The notes under the pieces are model-generated. The model had not been told where the DNA came from. It searched no databases and was given only the letters and a program-made list of their open reading frames with translations. Both the position numbers and the translations under genes were made by a program. From Corynebacterium amycolatum (GTDB lineage Bacteria > Actinomycetota > Actinomycetes > Mycobacteriales > Mycobacteriaceae), in NCBI RefSeq assembly GCF_049243625.1, contig NZ_CP046975.1: a stretch of 32,000 nt of DNA, one strand, 5' to 3'. Positions 4,166-31,629 of this stretch are shown one piece after another (positions within the stretch are counted from its first letter, which is position 1; each line of letters opens with the position of its first letter).

Positions 4166-4909
4166 CTACTCCTCGTCCAGCACCATGCGATAACCGACCC
4201 CCACCTCAGTGCGCAAGTACTTGTTGTGAGCCTGCTGAGGCTCAATCTTGTGGCGCAGCTGGGAGATGTAAACGCGCAGGTAGTTGGTCTCTTTTTCGTA
4301 CTGGTCACCCCAGACGGCCTTGAGAAGCTCCAGTTTGGTCACCAGTTCGCCACGATGCTGCACCAGGTAGACCAGGATGTCCCACTCGCGCGGGGTCAGA
4401 TGCACGAGCTCGTCCGCCACGAGAACTTGCCGTTTGGCCAGGTCAACCATTAGATGACCATCTGCGGAGGTCACCTTCGGCACCTCTTCGACCACTACTT
4501 TGCTAGCACGCCGCATGGTTGAACGCAGCCGAGCCAACAACTCCCCCATCGAGAAAGGCTTGGTGACGTAGTCATCGGCCCCTTCATTGAGGGCGTTGAC
4601 TTTCCCCGCCTCGTCGTGACGTGCGGAGACAATCAGCACTGGAATATCGCTCCACCTGCGCAAAGAACGCAGAACTTCCAGGCCACTGACATCGGGCAAG
4701 CCCAGATCCAGGAGAACGGCGTCGGGCTTCCACTCGCTGTCCGCGGCTAACGCCCGCGTGGCCGTTTGCGCGACACGTGGCTCGTAACCGCGGGCTTTTA
4801 AACTGACAAGCACAGTGCGGGCCATGGCGACATCATCCTCGACGATGAGTATCTTTCGCCCGGGTTTGTTGCCAGCCTGACCAGCGGGTTGTCCTGAACT
4901 GAGATTCAT
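4166..4909 (-). CDS. kdpE: Two-component response regulator KdpE (OmpR/PhoB family)
   Basis: Receiver domain (KILIVEDD.., LLDLGLPD) plus C-terminal winged helix (LTPREWDILVYLVQHRGELVT, YLRVYISQLRHKIE, GVGYRM). Lies 6 nt downstream of kdpD. Confidence 0.9.
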   Translation of the reverse strand: MNLSSGQPAGQAGNKPGRKILIVEDDVAMARTVLVSLKARGYEPRVAQTATRALAADSEWKPDAVLLDLGLPDVSGLEVLRSLRRWSDIPVLIVSARHDEAGKVNALNEGADDYVTKPFSMGELLARLRSTMRRASKVVVEEVPKVTSADGHLMVDLAKRQVLVADELVHLTPREWDILVYLVQHRGELVTKLELLKAVWGDQYEKETNYLRVYISQLRHKIEPQQAHNKYLRTEVGVGYRMVLDEE

Positions 4910-4915
4910 GGAATC

Positions 4916-7519
4916 CTACTTTCTCTCGCCCATTGCACGCGGCAACGTCAGCACGAAGGTAGCACCGCCGCCGGGTGTCTGTTCGGCGCGGATGGCGCCT
5001 CCCATGGCGTCGGCAAAACGCGAGGCGGCGGCAAGTCCCAGACCAAGGCCCTGAGATTGTGCCGAGTAGTCGCCAAGGCGTTGGAACGGTTGAAAAATCT
5101 CCTCCAACTTATCCTCCGGGATGCCCTTACCGTGGTCAATGATCAAAATGTCTATGCATGCGCTCGCAGCGATAGCACCCAGCGAGCCCATAACCGGCAT
5201 GTCGGCGGGACCGCGCACACCGCGCTCGCTGGGCCGCGTACGAATGGTCAGGCTCGACTCCGGTGCGTACTGACGGCCGTTGATGACGATGTTGGAAACA
5301 ATGCGCTGGATCAGCCCAGGATCGCCTTCCACCATGCAGGCGTCATGGTCAATATCGCGGTCAATGTGACCTGCGGCTTCCGGCAGCTCCGCACATACCG
5401 CGTCCACAACATCGGAGACGCTAACCGGCACACTTTCCACCCGCTTGGTGCTGGAGTCGATGCGGCTGGCATCGAGTAGGTTGCCAATGACCACCTCTAG
5501 GCGGTCAGCGGAACTCTCGATTGTCTCCATGAGGATGAGACGCGTTTCGTCGTCAAGCTCGACGTCCTCCATGTTCATGCTGGAGATCGCAGCCTTGATG
5601 CTGGCCAGCGGTGTGCGCAGGTCATGTGAAACGGCGGTCAGCACCGCGCTGCCCACGCGGTTGCCCGCCTCGAGGGCAGCGGTGGCGCGGCGCATCGCGG
5701 CGATTTCCTCCATGTCCATGAGCGCCCGGATGCGGGAACCGTGAGCCGCAATCATGGCAGTCTCAGCGGCGGTGAGTTCACGGCCACTGAGCACAAAGCG
5801 CAGGTCATCGCCGGAGCTGACCTTAGTCATCGGCAGCTCTGTCGGCCACGGTTCGGACAAGCCGTGTTCGGCGGTGGTGACAATGGTCAACCACTTCTTG
5901 CGCTCTGAGGAGTAACGCTGCACGTCCACGCGCTCCATCGAGAACGTATCCGCCAAGCTGTGGACCAGGTTGGACATGTTGTCGCCATCGTGGACGACAC
6001 CGTGTGCCAACTCGGACATTACGACTGCCTGATGCAGACTCCTGTCCGCCATCTCGCGGCGGCGCTCGGAACGCTCCACCACCGTCGCCACAGCCGCCGC
6101 AATCACACCGAAGAGCAGGATTTGAGCCAAGCTGGCCGGCTCGGTGATAGTCAGGGTGTTCACCGGAGCGGTGAAGTACCAGTTTGCCAGAATTGAGGAG
6201 ACCACCACTGCCGCCAGCGCTGGCACCAACCCTGCCGCCATAGCGGCGAAGACTATCGGCATCAGATAGGTCAGCAGCAGTACGCCCAGGAACTCCGGGC
6301 CGGTGTCCAGCTGGTAGAGCAGCAACGTCAGTAGCACTGGCCCCACCAGTGCCAGCAGCCAACCGGTGATACGTCGCTCCTTGGAAAAGCGAGAGCGCAG
6401 TTTCTTGCGCCGCTTGGCTTTCTTCTCTGAGCTTGAGGAGATGATGTGCACATCGATGGGCCCAGCCTGGTCGATGATGCGCTGCGAGGTACTTAAGCCC
6501 ACGTAGCGCCGCAGTCCTCGCTCCGAGCCAATGACCAGCTGCGATGCATTGACCGTGCGGGAGAACTCCAGCAGAATTCCCGGCACATCATCGCCCACGA
6601 TGGTGCGCCACTGCCCACCCAGCGACTCGGTGAGATCCTGCAGCTTGCGCAGCCGACGCAGATACCCGCGGTCAAGGCCGTCGTCCTCGCCGGTAATGTG
6701 CACGACAATCATCTCGCGGCCGGCCACGCGACCGGTCATACGAGCACCGCGGCGAATCATGGACTCCGCGTTCTCATCATCGCGCACGGCCACCACGACG
6801 CGCTCACGCGTGGTCCAGTGGTCGTCGATCTCCTCGTCTTCGCGGTAGGCATCGAGCACCTCCTCGACCTTGTCAGCCAGCCACAAAAGTGCCAGCTCAC
6901 GCAGGGCGCTGAGGTTGCCCGGGCGGAAGTACTTGCGCAGCGCTAGTTCCGCTTGCTCCTTGCGGTAGATTTCGCCGCGAGACAGGCGGATGCGCAGGGC
7001 GTCCGGGCTCAAGTCGATGAGCTCAATCTCGTCCGCATCGCGGAGGACACGGTCGGGTACCGTCTCCATCTGGCGCACGCCGGTGACGGCCGCAACGACG
7101 TCGTTAAGCGATTCCAAGTGCTGGATGTTCATCGTCGAGATGACGTCGATGCCTGCGTCGAGAAGCTGGTAGACATCGTGCCAGCGCTTGCGTTGCTGAA
7201 CGAACTCGTTGTCCGGCTCATCGGTAACGACGGTGTGCGCGAGCTCATCGACGAGGGCGACCTCGGGACGCATCTCGATAATCGCATCAACATCCAGCTC
7301 ACGATAGGTGTTGCCGCGGTAGGACACCTTTCGACAATCCAACACTGGCAGGCCTTCGATGAGCTTCTTCGTCCGCTCGCGACCGTGGTGTTCCACCAGA
7401 CCAATGACTACCTCGTGCCCACGGGAGTACAGATCGTGCCCCTCGCTCAACATGGCGCACGTCTTACCCACGCCCGGGGCGAACCCCAGGTAGACCTTCA
7501 GTTTTCCTCGCTTGGCCAT
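4916..7519 (-). CDS. kdpD: Sensor histidine kinase KdpD
   Basis: 867 aa. N-terminal KdpD domain with P-loop-like GFAPGVGKT, a Usp-like segment, a central cluster of TM helices, H-box SHDLRTPLASI and a C-terminal ATPase domain (GLGLGLAA). Located in the kdp locus. Confidence 0.93.
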   Translation of the reverse strand: MAKRGKLKVYLGFAPGVGKTCAMLSEGHDLYSRGHEVVIGLVEHHGRERTKKLIEGLPVLDCRKVSYRGNTYRELDVDAIIEMRPEVALVDELAHTVVTDEPDNEFVQQRKRWHDVYQLLDAGIDVISTMNIQHLESLNDVVAAVTGVRQMETVPDRVLRDADEIELIDLSPDALRIRLSRGEIYRKEQAELALRKYFRPGNLSALRELALLWLADKVEEVLDAYREDEEIDDHWTTRERVVVAVRDDENAESMIRRGARMTGRVAGREMIVVHITGEDDGLDRGYLRRLRKLQDLTESLGGQWRTIVGDDVPGILLEFSRTVNASQLVIGSERGLRRYVGLSTSQRIIDQAGPIDVHIISSSSEKKAKRRKKLRSRFSKERRITGWLLALVGPVLLTLLLYQLDTGPEFLGVLLLTYLMPIVFAAMAAGLVPALAAVVVSSILANWYFTAPVNTLTITEPASLAQILLFGVIAAAVATVVERSERRREMADRSLHQAVVMSELAHGVVHDGDNMSNLVHSLADTFSMERVDVQRYSSERKKWLTIVTTAEHGLSEPWPTELPMTKVSSGDDLRFVLSGRELTAAETAMIAAHGSRIRALMDMEEIAAMRRATAALEAGNRVGSAVLTAVSHDLRTPLASIKAAISSMNMEDVELDDETRLILMETIESSADRLEVVIGNLLDASRIDSSTKRVESVPVSVSDVVDAVCAELPEAAGHIDRDIDHDACMVEGDPGLIQRIVSNIVINGRQYAPESSLTIRTRPSERGVRGPADMPVMGSLGAIAASACIDILIIDHGKGIPEDKLEEIFQPFQRLGDYSAQSQGLGLGLAAASRFADAMGGAIRAEQTPGGGATFVLTLPRAMGERK

Positions 7520-7565
7520 TTCTTACAGACCTTTACTTGCCATACCTTGCCCAATCGCAGGATGC

Positions 7566-8156
7566 TTACTGTCCGCCTGTCAGAGCGGCGTTCAGCTTTA
7601 CGACGTTGACCAGTCGCCCACCATCCTGCGAGCCCTGTTCCGTAATTGCTTTTTCACTATTTTCCGAGATCAACCGCTCAACCTCTGCCTGTGGCAGGTT
7701 GCGCTCCTTGGCCACGCGCGGTGCTTGCAGCTGTGCGTACTTCTCGGAGATATGCGGATCCAGACCGGAACCGGAGGCGGTGACTGCCTCCACCGGTACC
7801 TGAGCCGGGTCGATGCCCTCGCGGGCAGCGACATCGGTGCGGCGCTGTTCGATTTCAGCCTGGAACTCCTTGCTATACGGCGACACGTTCGATGCCGAAG
7901 ACGACATCGCGTCGTAGCCATTATCCCCCGCAGCAGACGGGCGCGGGTAGAAAAATCCCGGCTTTGTCACTTCTTGGGCAATGAGCTCCGAGCCCTGGGC
8001 CTTGCCTGCGGAGTCATACATCATCGAGCCATCAGCGTTATCGGACCAGATTCGCCCCGCTACCCAGATTGCGGCTGGGTACAGCAGGCCGATAACCACG
8101 GTGAGCAGCAAATATGCCTTGATTGTGGTGGATACCAACCGAAAGTTCTTGTTCAT
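7566..8156 (-). CDS. kdpC: Potassium-transporting ATPase subunit KdpC
   Basis: Start at ATG 8156 (MNKNFRLVSTTIKAYLLLTVVIGLLYP..) gives a typical ~196-aa KdpC with an N-terminal TM anchor and the conserved ASGSGLDPHIS motif. The ORF stays open upstream to 8237, so that start is an alternative. Confidence 0.88.
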   Translation of the reverse strand: MNKNFRLVSTTIKAYLLLTVVIGLLYPAAIWVAGRIWSDNADGSMMYDSAGKAQGSELIAQEVTKPGFFYPRPSAAGDNGYDAMSSSASNVSPYSKEFQAEIEQRRTDVAAREGIDPAQVPVEAVTASGSGLDPHISEKYAQLQAPRVAKERNLPQAEVERLISENSEKAITEQGSQDGGRLVNVVKLNAALTGGQ

Positions 8157-26307: not shown

Positions 26308-28143
26308 TTAGTCCTGCAGACTCTTCTCGATACGAGCCTTCAGAGCCTCGAACTCGTCCCAGACTTCCTGCGGAACGCGGTCGCCGAGGAACTTCAGCCA
26401 CTCCTCGTTGTCCGGCAGGTCACCCTGCCACTTAGCAGCCGGTGCCTTCAGGGCTTCCTTGACATCGGCGAAGTCGATGTCCAGGCCAGTCAGGTCCAGG
26501 TCCTCTGCCTTAGCGGTGTGACCAACAACGGTCTCCTTGGCGCCAACACGGCCCTCAATGCGGTCGATGATCCACTTGAGAACGCGAGAGTTGTCACCGA
26601 AGCCCGGCCACAGGAAGCGGCCGTCTTCGCCACGGCGGAACCAGTTAACCAGGAAGACCTCTGGCATCTTGTCGCCGCCCTTGGCGCCCATGTCGATCCA
26701 GTGCTGCAGGTAGTCACCGACGTTGTAGCCAATGAACGGCAGCATTGCCATCGGGTCGTGGCGCAGGGAGCCGACCTTAGCCTCAGCGGAAGCAGCGGTC
26801 TGGCCGGAAGCCAGGGTTGCACCGATGAAGGTTGCGTGGTTCCAGGACAGTGCCTGGGTCACCAGCGGCACAGTGTCCGGGCGGAGGCCACCGAACAGGA
26901 TGGCGTCGATCGGGACACCCTGCGGGTCGTCGTACTCCGGTGCGGCGACCGGGCACTGCGAAATCGGGGTGCAGTAACGGGAGTTCGGGTGCGAGGACAG
27001 CTCGTCGGAATCCGGAGTCCAGTCATTGCCCTTCCAGTCAATGAGGTGATCCGGCTTGCCTTCCATGCCTTCCCACCAGACGTCACCATCGTCGGTCAGT
27101 GCGACGTTGGTGAACAGGGTGTTACCGGCCTCCATGGTCTTCATGGCGTTCGGGTTGGAGGAGTAGTTGGTGCCCGGCGCAACACCGAAGAAGCCGTTCT
27201 CCGGGTTAACAGCGTACAGGCGACCGTCCTCACCAAACTTCAGCCATGCAATGTCGTCGCCGACGACCTCGGCCTTCCAGCCCTCGATGGTCGGAGTCAG
27301 CATAGCCAGGTTGGTCTTACCACATGCAGACGGGAATGCAGCGGCGATGTGGTAGGCCTTGCCCTCCGGATTGGTGAGCTTCAGGATGAGCATGTGCTCA
27401 GCCATCCAGCCCTCTTCCTTGGCCATGACCGAAGCGATACGCAGTGCGTAGCACTTCTTGGCCAGGATGGCGTTTCCGCCGTAGCCGGAACCGTAGGACC
27501 AAATCTCCTTGGTCTCCGGGAACTGGGTGATGTACTTCTCATCGTTGCACGGCCATGCAACGTCCTCCTGGCCCTCCTCCAGCGGAGCGCCAACGGAGTG
27601 CAGAGCGTGGACGAAGTCTCCGTCCGGGCCAATCTTGTCCAGGGCATCCTGACCCATGCGGGTCATGATTCGCATAGAGAGAACCACGTACTCCGAGTCG
27701 GTCAGCTGAACACCCAGCTTCGGCTCCGGGTCGGTGATCGGACCCATGCAGAACGGAACGACGAACATGGTGCGGCCCTTCATGGAACCGCGGTAGTGCT
27801 CGGTCATTTCCTTCTTCAGCTCGACCGGATCCGCCCAGTTGTTGGTCGGGCCAGCGTCCTCTTCCTTTTCAGAAGCGATGAACGTGCGGGACTCCACACG
27901 AGCAACGTCCTTCGGGTTAGAGCGGGCAAGGAAAGAGTTCGGGCGCTTTTCCTCATTCAGCTTGATAAGAGTTCCCTTATCAACCAGATCCTGGGTAAGG
28001 CGGTTCCACTCTTCTTCCGAGCCATCAGCAAAGACAACCTTGTCTGGCTGGGTCAGTTCTACGACCTCAGCAATCCAGCGCAGCAGTTCGGCGTTCTCGG
28101 TCGGGGCCTGGCCCTCGAGACCAGGAATAGAAGGTGCGGACAT
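26308..28143 (-). CDS. pckG: Phosphoenolpyruvate carboxykinase (GTP)
   Basis: 611 aa. GTP-PEPCK motifs [12 protein letters not shown] (P-loop), [11 protein letters not shown] and WMAEHMLI. Full-length collinear ORF. Confidence 0.96.
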
Positions 28144-28441
28144 CAGTTCTCCTGACTCATTGATTCGCGTCTTAATTTAAGGCTACCGGGGGATACCGAA
28201 AGTTGCCGGGCCCCACATCGACAATCTGCTCGTTCCCGCATTTGCAAGCCGTTACATCACAGCTTTACAACAATTAATTTTCCTCGCCCCATTCTTGCGA
28301 CCTGTTCATTTACGGCCATAACCAGTGAATAAGGCCAGCCTCACCACATAAATTGACAACCATTAACCCCTTGGGGGCAGTTACCCCCATTTGTAAGCAA
28401 CCGAGACACGGGTACCCCCGCGCGCAGTGGTTCCAAAGTCG

Positions 28442-28867
28442 TTAGTCCCAGCTGCCCCGAGCGGATTGCTCCCATGAGTACGCATCCCACTTCCCCGCGA
28501 CTGATGCCGGTTCCACCGCTGCTCCGCCCATCGCGTCAGCAGCCCTCACATCATCACTGCTCCAAGACTCCCAAGTGCCGTCAAAACGGACCGTCGTAAC
28601 GTGATCCACCGTGCCGTCACCGTCCAGATCTGAATAGATTGACAACCCGGAATCGTCGGCAAGCGTGATTGACCCCTCGTCGTCGCCGAGGTCGTAGAGC
28701 TGCCCATCGACCTCCACAACCAGCCCGGCGCCACCAACGTCCGCCGACTGCCCATCAATCGGTGTCGCCGCCTCCAAACCACACGGAGTAGCGAGCGAAC
28801 GCGCCTCCACCCCGCCATCGGACGCGGGTTGATCGGAAAAGTACTGCAGTAAAGAAAACTCATCCAT
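28442..28867 (-). CDS. Hypothetical acidic protein with a DxDxDG calcium-binding-like loop
   Basis: 141 aa. RBS GGGGGA 7 nt before ATG 28867. Very Asp/Gly-rich. DLDGDGTVD is encoded at 28604-28630. No signal peptide or TM segment seen. Confidence 0.6.
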   Translation of the reverse strand: MDEFSLLQYFSDQPASDGGVEARSLATPCGLEAATPIDGQSADVGGAGLVVEVDGQLYDLGDDEGSITLADDSGLSIYSDLDGDGTVDHVTTVRFDGTWESWSSDDVRAADAMGGAAVEPASVAGKWDAYSWEQSARGSWD

Positions 28868-28901
28868 CGTGATATCCCCCTATTTCTCTTCGCTGTCACA
28901 G

Positions 28902-29930
28902 CTATCGTGCAGGCGTTCCGGTGTACTCCGCCAGCTGCTCTATTCGCCATCCCGGACCCCGCGCACCAAGGGCCTCACGCACCGTCATCTCCACGGACTG
29001 TGTCCATCTTCGTCGCAGATGGGCAAGGTAATTTGCCCGCCACTGCGCGGTGCGTTGGCGTGCGTTACGACGAATCGTTGCGCCCACCGCCACCACCGCA
29101 ACACCGAGGCCTATTGCAAGTGCGACCAGCTGCGCCGCAAGCGTCGGCACCCCAATCCACATCAGCAATCCGTGGACGATCCGCACTGCACCGACCGCCA
29201 CGCCAAGCGATGCCACCGCCACCAGAGCGTCCATGGCATAACTGGGGCGAGCCGGGCTTGCTGGAGCGGGCACTGAGACTTCCACACGAAGGCCCAATTC
29301 GTCGCCACACCGCTGTTGCAGCCGCGTCGCTGCGACCTCGGCACGACCCTGAAGTTCCGCCTGATCACCTGCGGGGCCGTCAGCCACCTCCTGGAGTGCA
29401 TCCCGCACTGCACTCTCAGCTGCCAACTGCATCTTCCGCTGCAATCGCGCCGCCGCCCCGGCTCCGCGCGATCGCTCCTGTGCCAGCTGAGCTCGCACAT
29501 TTCGAGCCCGGCGCGCACTCAGTGTTTCCCCCGGGTTTCTGGGCGGGCCTTCTGCCAGCAGAACCAGGGTTCTGGCCATCCTCCCGTCCAGCGCTCCCAT
29601 CGGGATTGTGCTGTCGATTTCCTGACGCCAGGCCTCGGCATACTCACCATTGCCAATCAGGCCAACTGCAACACGGCCGGTGGCTTGGCTAATGGCTGCA
29701 ACCGTGCTGACGCACTCCCGCGTGGGCTGCACCTCGCTGTCTGCAATATAGAGCACCACGGCGCTGCGTTTATCCACAAACTCCAGGCGACGTGGCGGAG
29801 TCGCAGTATCAACAATCTGCGAGAAGTCCGCGCGGTCCGCTGCGTCCCCGGCTTTGGTGACAAGTAGCGGTGGCTGCTCCGGCCCCTCGGCTGAGACCGG
29901 GCGTGGCTCAACTACGTCCGGTGCTGCCAT
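28902..29930 (-). CDS. Hypothetical membrane protein (soluble N-terminal domain, Arg/Ala/Gln-rich helical segment, two TM helices, basic C-terminal tail)
   Basis: 342 aa. Strong RBS GGAGGAG 5 nt before ATG 29930. Hydrophobic hairpin ALVAVASLGVAVGAVRIVHGLLMWIGVPTLAAQLVALAIGLGVAVVAVGATI. I recognise no family. Confidence 0.65.
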   Translation of the reverse strand: MAAPDVVEPRPVSAEGPEQPPLLVTKAGDAADRADFSQIVDTATPPRRLEFVDKRSAVVLYIADSEVQPTRECVSTVAAISQATGRVAVGLIGNGEYAEAWRQEIDSTIPMGALDGRMARTLVLLAEGPPRNPGETLSARRARNVRAQLAQERSRGAGAAARLQRKMQLAAESAVRDALQEVADGPAGDQAELQGRAEVAATRLQQRCGDELGLRVEVSVPAPASPARPSYAMDALVAVASLGVAVGAVRIVHGLLMWIGVPTLAAQLVALAIGLGVAVVAVGATIRRNARQRTAQWRANYLAHLRRRWTQSVEMTVREALGARGPGWRIEQLAEYTGTPAR

Positions 29931-30454
29931 AACAGCTCCTCCAGGCTGTCTCTAGCAGCGGGAAAGGCCGCCGCAATCTCAGTCAACTGCACTGCGAGTA
30001 GCCCGTCATCATTGCGTGATCCGCCTTTCACACCGCGGCGTTCAGCAATCTTCCGCAACGCGGAGCTGAACAAAAAGGTGTGTTCAGCTGTCTCGTTTGT
30101 GGCGATGTCGCAATACTCGTCGGCAAGCGAATGGCGAATCGGTTGTTGCTCGATGACCAGCGCGACAGGGGCGGACAGCTTGTCGGCCAGCTCCTCGTGA
30201 CATTGCGAAAACGCCTCGCGCACAGCGGTTTCGCGCACGCCCCTGCGCAATCGCGCGCAGATTATCGATGGCCGTTTCTCGCGCTCAAGCGCCTTGGCGA
30301 CGCACACCTCCGCACCGCTCGTGTGTGTGGTGTCCGAGTGCGCGACCTGCCGTGCTGACAGCCAGTCCACCACAGCGGCGCGCAACGACGACGATGTAGA
30401 TCCTGTTGACGGCTGTGTTGTTTCCGTGACGTCACTTGCGGAAATAAGGTCCAT
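29912..30454 (-). CDS. Hypothetical protein (180 aa), first gene of the three-gene operon
   Basis: ATG 30454 with GGGAGGGG upstream. The 3' end overlaps the next gene by 19 nt. No recognisable motifs and no TM segment. Confidence 0.55.
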   Translation of the reverse strand: MDLISASDVTETTQPSTGSTSSSLRAAVVDWLSARQVAHSDTTHTSGAEVCVAKALEREKRPSIICARLRRGVRETAVREAFSQCHEELADKLSAPVALVIEQQPIRHSLADEYCDIATNETAEHTFLFSSALRKIAERRGVKGGSRNDDGLLAVQLTEIAAAFPAARDSLEELLWQHRT

Positions 30455-30759
30455 TCGGCCTAGTCCCCTCCCATAAATCCCCTGCGTGGTTTAGTTAAAA
30501 AACCTGCGTAACCCCCATACGGCCTGTGGGCCAGAATCCGCGCCCTGAAACACTGCGTTAGGCAGACCCCAAGCACCGCTTCAACCAACGAATAAGCGCG
30601 GCTTCGCGTTCAGCCTACAGCGGACCGCGGATTCGGCAAGTCGACAAAACAACTTGCCTCGCCGTGCCGCCAGTTCGGGACGACGCGGCATCGTCAACCG
30701 AAGTGAAACCGCCAGGACAACAACAAAAATCCTAGGGGCAATGATTGGATAGTTGGCCG

Positions 30760-31629
30760 ATGTCGTGGACAATAGGGAACGTGACTACTTCTGATTTTTC
30801 TGAAAATATCGAACAGCCTGCGGTTTCGCAGGAATCTGAACCATTGCCAACTCACGGAGACGAGCAGGCGGAACAGCCGCATGAGCGCCAGCCGAAGAAG
30901 GGCGAATTGCCTGCAGGTCGTCCGGAAAAGACCCAATTCGACGACGGTCTTGACTACCCGCGCATCGGCAATCTGTCCTTCCGCCGCGGCACTTTGACCC
31001 CCAACCAGGAAAGAATCTGGGAAGACAACTGGGACACTTACGGCAAGGTCCTCTCCGACGAAGTCATTGACGTGGAGGAATGGTTTGGCCGCAAGGGCCC
31101 GACCATCGTCGAGATTGGCTGCGGCACCGGCACGTCCACCGTGGCTATGGCTCCGCAAGAACCGGACCACAACATCATCGCAGTTGAGCTTTACCGCCCT
31201 GGCCTGGCGAAACTGCTCTCTGCCACCGTGCGCAATGAGGTGTCGAACATCCGCATGGTCCGCGGCGACGGCGTCGAGGTTTTGCAGCGCATGATCGAGC
31301 CGGAGTCGCTGGCCGGCGTGCGCCTGTTCTTCCCGGACCCGTGGCCGAAGGCACGCCATCACAAGCGCCGCATTGTGCAGTCCGGCACGTTGCGCCTGAT
31401 TTCTTCGCGTCTGAAGCCTGGCGGCATATTCCACGCCGCCACTGACCATGCGGACTACGCCGAGTGGATCGAAGAACTTCGCGATGTCGAGCCGACGCTG
31501 GAGCCCATCGCCTGGCCATGGCCGGAATCTCCCATGCTTCTCGACCGACCGACGACCAAGTTCGAAGCCCGCGGCCTGAACCTCGACCACGACATCCACG
31601 AGTTCATCTGGCGCAAGAAAGAGGCATAG
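30760..31629 (+). CDS. trmB: tRNA (guanine(46)-N7)-methyltransferase
   Basis: SAM-binding [10 protein letters not shown] and the TrmB hallmark [17 protein letters not shown]. The N-terminal ~60 aa is a low-complexity extension. ATG 30760 chosen; TTG 30745 is also possible. Confidence 0.9.

Follow-up and report, generated by a model that had tools for sequence, protein, structure and literature searches.

Three adjacent genes of Corynebacterium amycolatum, lying between trmB and the phosphoenolpyruvate carboxykinase (PEPCK) gene pck, appear to be a reduced form of a gene module found at this position across the mycolic-acid bacteria. They are part of a window of 32,000 nucleotides (nt) of contig NZ_CP046975.1 (RefSeq assembly GCF_049243625.1) and are referred to here as open reading frames (ORFs) 1, 2 and 3. 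The full-length module comprises geneA and geneB, which encode proteins with paralogous G domains, and a gene for a DUF6802 protein (geneC). Judged from profile alignments, the locus is a degenerate variant of the paired dynamin-like/TRAFAC guanosine triphosphatases (GTPases) of bacteria, accompanied by a DUF6802 partner and with an inferred function. Our preferred reading, to which we assign a probability of about 70%, is that the trio is a reduced geneA-geneB-DUF6802 module acting as a membrane scaffold or membrane-shaping assembly independent of guanosine triphosphate (GTP). The three genes are as follows (aa, amino acids; pI, isoelectric point):

29912-30454, minus strand: ORF1, 180 aa, soluble, pI 5.7 (ORF listing and sequence)
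28902-29930, minus strand: ORF2, 342 aa (ORF listing and sequence)
28442-28867, minus strand: ORF3, 141 aa, pI 4.05 (ORF listing and sequence)

The original prediction, made from the sequence of the locus, had been unable to assign any of the three proteins to a known family. This holds for ORF1 and ORF2 as far as curated models are concerned, and all three proteins are functionally uncharacterised, but ORF3 is a member of DUF6802. Moreover, ORF2 and probably ORF1 can be assigned after all, as shrunken derivatives of GTPase/dynamin-like proteins, on the basis of the hhalign match of ORF2 to geneB and a weak match of ORF1 to geneA.

ORF2 as a shortened homologue of geneB

The comparison of the ORF2 family with the geneB family by hhalign gave a match of 98.4% probability (E 8.1e-15), co-linear over 259-324 columns and spanning the G3/G4 remnant, the stalk, the hairpin and the post-hairpin helix. 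Given this co-linear 324-column alignment, ORF2 is, on profile evidence, homologous to geneB, though shorter by about 150 residues and with its G1 and G4 motifs destroyed. Motifs shared by the two families are VVLxVxD following G3, the WR that comes after G4, GxGLGR where the hairpin begins, and R-x3-W beyond the hairpin. In an extended hhalign alignment, LLVTKAGD--AADRA of ORF2 falls on the P-loop strand of geneB, AVVLYIADS on its VxVlDA strand, and GLIGNGEYAEAWR on its KIDxxxDWR segment. One protein, from the related locus L027, is intermediate and is matched by both the ORF2-family and the geneB profiles.

The layout proposed earlier for ORF2, with a soluble N-terminal domain, Arg/Ala/Gln-rich helices, a two-helix membrane hairpin, and a basic tail, agrees with hydropathy, composition, and the AlphaFold2 (AF2) model, the mean predicted local distance difference test score (pLDDT) of which is 85:

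29550-29867, minus strand: ORF2 residues 22-127, a compact alpha/beta domain and G-domain remnant (AF2 secondary structure and hhalign)
29295-29522, minus strand: ORF2 residues 137-212, a stalk-like hairpin of two long helices rich in Arg, Ala and Gln (AF2 helices 137-183 and 190-212)
29076-29240, minus strand: ORF2 residues 231-285, a two-helix membrane hairpin (hydropathy >1.6 at 231-270; AF2 helices 231-258 and 263-322)
28905-29075, minus strand: ORF2 residues 286-342, a very basic juxtamembrane helix (RRNARQRTAQWRANYLAHLRRRW) and the C-terminal WRIEQL (composition and family alignment)

The N-terminal domain is soluble and acidic (pI 4.6), and the Arg/Ala/Gln-rich stretch covers residues 136-230 by sequence. 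The tail, residues 286-342, has a pI of 11.9 and 12 Lys and Arg versus 4 Asp and Glu residues; the long basic helix that follows the hairpin reaches residue 322 in the AF2 model. The stalk helices of ORF2 align to the geneB stalk, which itself aligns to the neck/trunk of IniA (residues 260-409), the hairpin aligns to the conserved GASAGxGLGR...hairpin segment of geneB, and the basic helix aligns to the geneB post-hairpin helix.

The P-loop position of ORF2 reads VTKAGDAADRA, and the motif GxxxxGK[ST] occurs nowhere in ORF2 or ORF1. At the G4 position ORF2 has GLIGNGE where geneB has NKID, TKID or SKID, and the dynamin-type W-R after G4 is retained (EAWRQ). Among the dynamin-like features tested, ORF2 therefore has the stalk and the membrane hairpin and lacks the G1 P-loop and the G4 [N/T]KxD. 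The motifs TGPAA, EPTR and ATGR are invariant and new to the short ORF2 family, which suggests that the remnant domain may have been retained as an interaction surface; the family also has invariant residues at W297, R306, W309, W328 and R329. A word-based search found 8 homologues of ORF2, and an exhaustive hidden Markov model (HMM) search of 1.84 billion proteins found 14 cluster representatives; every family member carrying a name is a Corynebacterium 'hypothetical protein'.

Full-length geneA and geneB proteins

The geneA products, about 250-380 aa long, are soluble and have a G domain of the TRAFAC type, and the geneB products, at about 475-530 aa, combine a G domain with a helical stalk, two hydrophobic helices near residues 340-400, and a C-terminal coiled coil. 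The two G domains are paralogues by hhalign (97.6%, E 4.7e-12). The best PDB match of the geneB profile is Mycolicibacterium smegmatis IniA (6j72, E 1.6e-9), followed by EngA/Der, Era and TrmE; in the alignment of geneB with IniA, the strand after G3 is followed by KxD-x3-WR and then by helical stalk over about 200 residues. The geneA profile matches TrmE (2.6e-5) and EngA best, and EngA is among the next-best matches of the geneA/geneB profiles (9.9e-9). For geneA and geneB, all Pfam and NCBIfam models stay below their cut-offs, no paper on either was found in the library searched, and literature searches for DUF6802 and MSMEG_0253/0254 were empty.

An intact GxxxxGK[ST] is present in 2 of 17 geneA and 3 of 19 geneB proteins, and the P-loop and NKxD are both intact in geneA of loci L074 and L068 and in geneB of L075, L068 and L064. 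In most remaining copies the P-loop lysine is replaced by arginine or another residue (GVGRS/T, GTGRD), with NKAD often kept in geneA. About 40% of geneA/geneB proteins retain [N/T]KxD, and geneB has a conserved KID-x3-W-R. Since an intact GK[ST] is rare across genera, decay of the motif is widespread and uneven and is not specific to Corynebacterium.

Elsewhere in the C. amycolatum genome, outside the window, two neighbouring frames of 664 and 542 aa have weak Dynamin_N matches in their P-loop regions (1110186-1110263 and 1113450-1113767); therefore, this organism may also carry a canonical dynamin-like pair.

ORF1 and ORF3

Weak matches, taken together with gene position and coupling to ORF2, indicate that ORF1 is probably a remnant of geneA, also without a P-loop. 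The matches to geneA are co-linear and fall at residues 47-87, corresponding to the P-loop strand, and 152-177, corresponding to the C-terminal RDxLEELL; in ORF1 the P-loop strand is degenerate (PSIICARLRRGVRETAV), the aligned P-loop position reads ICARLRRGVRETAV, and the C-terminal motif is A-RDSLEELLW. The geneA HMM matches the ORF1-like proteins of L027 (8e-8) and L026 (2e-5), both of which are also found by the ORF1-family HMM. The 12 homologues of ORF1 all belong to close relatives, and nothing above threshold was obtained for it in Pfam, NCBIfam, PADLOC or PDB sequence searches.

ORF3 was identified as a DUF6802 protein (PF20615) with 32.1 bits (gathering threshold 27 bits; E 1.2e-7, residues 45-103), the single DUF6802 match in a scan of the whole genome. 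Most of its 44 homologues carry a precomputed PF20615 assignment. The earlier description of ORF3 as an acidic protein with a calcium-type loop and no export signal stands, with the qualification that the loop lies between beta strands and is not that of an EF-hand. Asp and Glu residues number 29 versus 5 Lys and Arg, in keeping with the pI of 4.05, and neither ORF3 nor its homologues have a signal-peptide-like N-terminus.

28604-28630, minus strand: DLDGDGTVD, a DxDxDGxxD calcium-type loop, ORF3 residues 80-88 (sequence)

In 23 sequences from several genera the invariant DUF6802 columns are D80, D82, D84, D88, G97, W132 and G138; the Asp-loop columns being invariant, the loop can be regarded as the core of the family. 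The AF2 core of ORF3 (residues 45-105, pLDDT about 85-90) is predicted to be a beta meander with the Asp loop between strands, which is not an EF-hand architecture, and ORF3 has no EF-hand match in Pfam; NCBIfam and PADLOC scans of ORF3 yielded nothing above threshold. FG-GAP, Excalibur and EF-hand matches occur in relatives of ORF3, all of them weak and sub-threshold, and a PDB sequence match of ORF3 to dockerin comprises the Asp loop alone. Compared with DUF6802 at large, the Corynebacterium members add an N-terminal extension of 25-45 aa and a variable acidic linker that precedes the last strand and its terminal W-x5-G motif.

The single-domain form is not the sole architecture of DUF6802. 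In other families of the order the domain was observed as 2-4 tandem repeats in frames of 250-600 aa (L046, L048, L053), and L046 has two adjacent DUF6802 genes (5743-6711 and 6724-8022).

Organisation and conservation of the three genes

Reading the sequence again bore out the three co-directional frames of 180, 342 and 141 aa together with the 19-nt overlap, the 34-nt gap and the Shine-Dalgarno (SD) sites reported for them. ORF1 and ORF2 overlap at 29912-29930, and ORF2 and ORF3 are separated by 28868-28901. Each ORF is preceded by a purine-rich SD-like site, GGGAGGGG upstream of ORF1, GGGGGA 7 nt before the ATG of ORF3, and the following site for ORF2:

29936-29942, minus strand: SD of ORF2, GGAGGAG, 5 nt before the ORF2 ATG (read from sequence)

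The segment encoding the conserved C-terminal LEELLW of ORF1 (29928-29942) serves two purposes: the GGAGGAG of ORF2 is supplied by its Glu-Glu codons, and the ORF2 ATG spans its Leu-Trp codons. With both the SD and the start codon of ORF2 inside the last codons of ORF1, this is, as read from the sequence, a classic translational-coupling layout. By ORF coordinates, geneA/geneB-type overlaps in relatives are 22 nt in L055 and 4 nt in L060, L066 and L069.

All three genes are under purifying selection. In comparisons with two related species (L024, L025) the ratio of nonsynonymous to synonymous substitution rates (dN/dS) was 0.25-0.33 for ORF1, 0.14-0.20 for ORF2 and 0.14-0.22 for ORF3; pck and trmB gave 0.06-0.09 and 0.06-0.12 in the same comparison. 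In related metagenome contigs, independent gene callers likewise placed three genes between trmB and pck, ordered as here and encoding 174, 358 and 154 aa. The three genes are real. We also considered whether ORF1 and ORF2 are one frameshifted gene; this was dismissed, since throughout the family geneA and geneB exist as two distinct genes that overlap.

The slot between trmB and pck

The genes flanking the trio were identified as follows:

26308-28143, minus strand: pck, GTP-dependent PEPCK gene (PEPCK_GTP, 548 bits)
30745-31629, plus strand: trmB, TrmB-type methyltransferase gene, divergent from the trio (Methyltransf_4, 176 bits)

Both flanks of the slot are thus as originally described, except that the NYN gene placed next to trmB is cut by the window end, and so is unconfirmed here; in the related contig L055 an NYN gene does follow trmB.

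We located trmB in 60 other Corynebacterium genomes and examined the trmB-pck slot in 20 of these. The full three-gene slot is present in five, with all frames intact in every relative having them; three have a 509-aa protein and DUF6802, and five a single hairpin protein of 325-413 aa and DUF6802. In the other seven (L031, L034, L035, L038, L039, L041, L042) the slot is empty, with trmB and pck only 150-610 nt apart, so that the whole module must have been deleted there. DUF6802 was not found in C. glutamicum, scanned as a control.

Among the genomes with a single slot protein, those of L036, L037, L040 and L043 (330-413 aa) have a C-terminal membrane hairpin and a basic tail, are followed by DUF6802, and by eye contain two 'xIAVIGPD / DAVLAVAP' alpha/beta units. 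We considered whether they are fusions of ORF1 and ORF2 and rejected this, since the hhalign probability was 10% or less; homology to ORF1, ORF2, geneA or geneB is likewise unsupported by profile comparison at this level. Given this result, we claim for them only the position, the C-terminal hairpin with its basic tail, and the DUF6802 neighbour.

For a further 20 genera of this GTDB family (L057-L076) we examined the region upstream of pck; most of them have the same pattern, divergent from trmB and on the same strand as pck. With local HMMs, geneA, geneB and geneC were all found in 14 of the 20 genera and geneC (DUF6802) in 16; geneC encodes a very acidic protein of 100-155 aa directly before pck, with DUF6802 scores of up to 117 bits. 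The geneB profile matched 139 of 151 genomes, which cover 33 of the 34 genera in the GTDB family. For 50 genomes both geneB and pck coordinates were listed, and in every one of them the best geneB match was on the pck strand, 0.16-3.4 kb upstream of that gene. Three further families of the order likewise have DUF6802 after geneA/geneB homologues and before pck (L046, L049-L051). The conserved position and co-occurrence that had been supposed for Mycobacteriales were therefore recovered, with the trio in a quarter of the Corynebacterium slots and homologous slot genes across the GTDB family and beyond. By homology and gene order, the trio is the C. amycolatum-group version of a conserved trio that is divergent from trmB and upstream of pck across mycolic-acid bacteria. 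In L070 (reverse-complemented), a 474-aa ORF that resembles glucose-6-phosphate dehydrogenase by eye lies between geneB and the DUF6802 gene (4795-6219).

The stretch between ORF3 and pck is itself conserved:

28144-28441, minus strand: ORF3-pck spacer, 298 nt (sequence)

Across three species-level relatives its mean column identity is 92%; the synonymous divergence (dS) of the flanking ORFs is 0.33-0.74, and the spacer is therefore far better conserved than they are. Because of this very strong conservation, it is probably a long, tightly constrained promoter/leader region of pck, outside the trio. No terminator-like site was detected on the minus strand of the spacer, and Rfam gave no match in 28000-30900. 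A local GGGGG/CCCCC hairpin was considered as an ORF3-pck terminator and rejected, being unconserved in relatives and folding no better than shuffled sequences (z -0.46).

Candidate counterparts in Mycobacterium tuberculosis

The original prediction pointed to Rv0209 and Rv0210 as uncharacterised genes in the same slot of M. tuberculosis. These proteins are 361 and 492 aa long, and the slot runs from trmB (Rv0208c) to pckA (Rv0211), in the orientation of the trio. The slot of Mycolicibacterium houstonense contains a geneA of 367 aa and a geneB of 496 aa, sizes which fit this suggestion. In the two Mycolicibacterium loci compared, geneA and geneB are full length and, unlike in C. amycolatum, there is no DUF6802 gene. 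A single-protein scan with geneB mostly returned Mycolicibacterium and Mycobacterium species, with a few Rhodococcus and Skermania loci and no M. tuberculosis record. Published papers give Rv0208c and Rv0209 as neighbours and annotate Rv0210 as a 'hypothetical protein'; in the literature found, Rv0209 and Rv0210 appear only in lists of single-nucleotide polymorphisms and of genome-wide association studies.

Comparison with known systems

The closest likeness is to IniA/IniC, an adjacent pair of paralogous GTPase-like genes from the same bacterial group, with a helical stalk and a membrane-inserting element. In contrast to these, ORF1 and ORF2 have neither P-loop nor NKxD, and ORF2 is roughly half as large as IniA. 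The trio also differs in its membrane element, a true two-helix hairpin with a basic helix after it, in its third, acidic DUF6802 partner, and in its fixed location beside pck rather than in an iniBAC-type stress operon.

Streptomyces DynA/DynB, Escherichia coli LeoB/LeoC and Campylobacter DLP1/DLP2 are paired active GTPases of 500-800 aa. The trio resembles them in the side-by-side arrangement of a soluble and a membrane-anchored paralogue, for which heterodimerisation would be expected; no sequence match to these systems was found beyond a weak one to LeoBC. Era, EngA (Der) and TrmE are the next-best profile matches of geneA/geneB and the most frequent Foldseek matches of the ORF2 N-terminal domain. 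They differ in being soluble, ribosome- or tRNA-associated proteins with complete G1-G5 motifs and without a stalk, a hairpin or a DUF6802 partner.

Proposed function and alternatives

We propose that translational coupling would produce ORF1 and ORF2 in a fixed ratio, and that the two may pair through their G-domain remnants, by analogy with bacterial dynamin-like pairs. The ORF2 hairpin would hold the complex at the membrane, on its cytoplasmic side; since the flanks of the hairpin are basic and there is no signal peptide, both ends of ORF2 are placed inside. ORF3, which is acidic, could dock on ORF2 via the basic stalk or tail, to which it is complementary in charge by composition, with the DxDxDG loop holding a divalent cation. 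Because GK[ST] and NKxD are gone, canonical GTP binding is not expected, and the role proposed is GTP-independent: the complex would be a static or cation-modulated scaffold that shapes or stabilises the membrane and not a mechanochemical GTPase.

Several results weigh against this proposal. ORF2 has no match above threshold in Pfam, NCBIfam, PADLOC or PDB sequence searches, and the Foldseek searches with the AF2 models of ORF2 and ORF3, which had been suggested at the outset, gave no match below E 1e-3. For ORF2 the best PDB match had an E of 4e-3, the top rank being dolichyl-phosphate mannose synthase; the remaining weak matches are mostly G domains (Era, IF2, EngA, YsxC, AAGAB), with IniA at rank 10 (E 0.18), and the PADLOC LeoBC model has a weak sub-threshold match on the hairpin region (E 0.037). 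For ORF3, the weak matches are to beta-propeller blades and OspA. With no direct match of ORF2 and weak Foldseek results, the dynamin link is a two-step profile chain from the ORF2 family to geneB (8e-15) and from geneB to IniA (1.6e-9), and even the full-length geneA/geneB proteins do not reach the thresholds of Pfam Dynamin_N and MMR_HSR1. On this profile evidence the link between ORF2 and IniA is remote and indirect, and does not amount to the clear profile hit to a characterised family that the original prediction had named as telling against its own view of the locus as undescribed. The case for ORF1 is affected too: hhalign of its family against geneA gave P 2.6e-4 at the P-loop strand with a weak probability of 28-42%, and the geneA HMM matched ORF1 itself weakly, with E about 1e-2 to 1e-4 in a tiny database. 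Rv0209 and Rv0210 fit geneA and geneB by position and size, not by alignment, and the empty slots in 7 of 20 genomes mean that the module is dispensable in Corynebacterium. Finally, complex formation, topology, cation binding and membrane activity are all properties that we infer from sequence.

The reduced module could also be the catalytically dead form of a third dynamin-like system, the core job of which needs neither GTP binding nor hydrolysis, with the static membrane scaffold, built of the stalk protein with its hairpin anchor, the soluble partner and a DUF6802 subunit carrying a cation, functionally linked to pck; we regard this more specific version as unlikely. PEPCK would then be placed or gated at the membrane, or full-length forms would sense the guanine-nucleotide pool, and the Lys-to-Arg P-loops elsewhere would be steps toward a nucleotide-locked or nucleotide-free scaffold.

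Loss of function altogether would be another explanation for the missing motifs. The trio may be a decaying relic on its way to loss in Corynebacterium, its proteins doing nothing specific: the P-loop, NKxD and about one third of the length are gone, the slot is empty in some genomes and DUF6802 missing from C. glutamicum, dN/dS is higher than for pck and trmB by a factor of 2-4, and the ORF2 family is tiny. However, dN/dS is 0.14-0.33, well under 1, for all genes in three pairwise comparisons, the frames are intact in all relatives having the trio, and the coupling overlap is conserved. The ORF2 family has, moreover, gained the invariant TGPAA, EPTR and ATGR motifs and kept its tail Trp and Arg residues, which makes decay a rather improbable account.

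The order-wide linkage to pck would be explained by a PEPCK-linked regulator, acting through sensing or buffering of guanine nucleotides or through membrane tethering or regulation of PEPCK. The PEPCK here is of the GTP-dependent type, geneB precedes pck on the same strand at 0.16-3.4 kb in 50 of 50 genomes, with the same order in other families, and a conserved terminator between ORF3 and pck is absent. Nevertheless, the G-domain remnants lack nucleotide-binding motifs, the conserved 298-nt spacer resembles a control region of pck's own, corynebacteria with an empty slot keep pck, and a functional link does not follow from conserved gene order by itself; we think it quite improbable that the trio regulates PEPCK.

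A lineage-specific invention without GTPase/dynamin kinship is a much less probable origin. The absence of Pfam, NCBIfam and PDB matches to ORF2 alone would agree with it, as would the non-significant Foldseek matches to flavodoxin-like folds (TIR, response regulator, nucleoside deoxyribosyltransferase); low-complexity Ala/Arg-rich helices and a generic hairpin in high-GC sequence could have inflated the profile scores. Such inflation is difficult to reconcile with co-linearity over >250 columns with specific motifs, an identical genomic position with the same DUF6802 partner downstream, and the L027 intermediate matched by both profiles. It is very improbable, finally, that ORF3 is exported non-classically to bind Ca2+ outside with ORF2 as its membrane receptor. 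The invariant DxDxDGxxD loop, of a kind common in extracellular Ca2+-binding modules, and the sub-threshold FG-GAP, Excalibur and EF-hand matches of relatives might suggest this, but ORF3 and its homologues lack a signal peptide. Moreover, given the ORF2 hairpin and the basic residues flanking it, both soluble parts are predicted to be in the cytoplasm, a location that G-domain ancestry implies as well.

Implications

The geneA-geneB(-DUF6802) arrangement is a widespread and apparently unstudied module with one fixed place, beside pck and near the trmB/NYN/mmpL region. That the stalk, hairpin, basic tail and DUF6802 protein are kept under selection without the nucleotide sites points to these parts as the ones likely to carry the conserved function. 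With proteins of 180, 342 and 141 aa, the trio offers a small and tractable system for structure and interaction work. As for annotation, ORF3 should be named a DUF6802 protein, and ORF2 should be described as a 'membrane-anchored dynamin-like (IniA-related) pseudo-GTPase, Rv0210-type' rather than simply as hypothetical. IniA and IniC are tied to drug tolerance, membrane fission and vesicle release. If Rv0209 and Rv0210 are equivalent to geneA and geneB, M. tuberculosis would have a third dynamin-like pair besides IniA/IniC.

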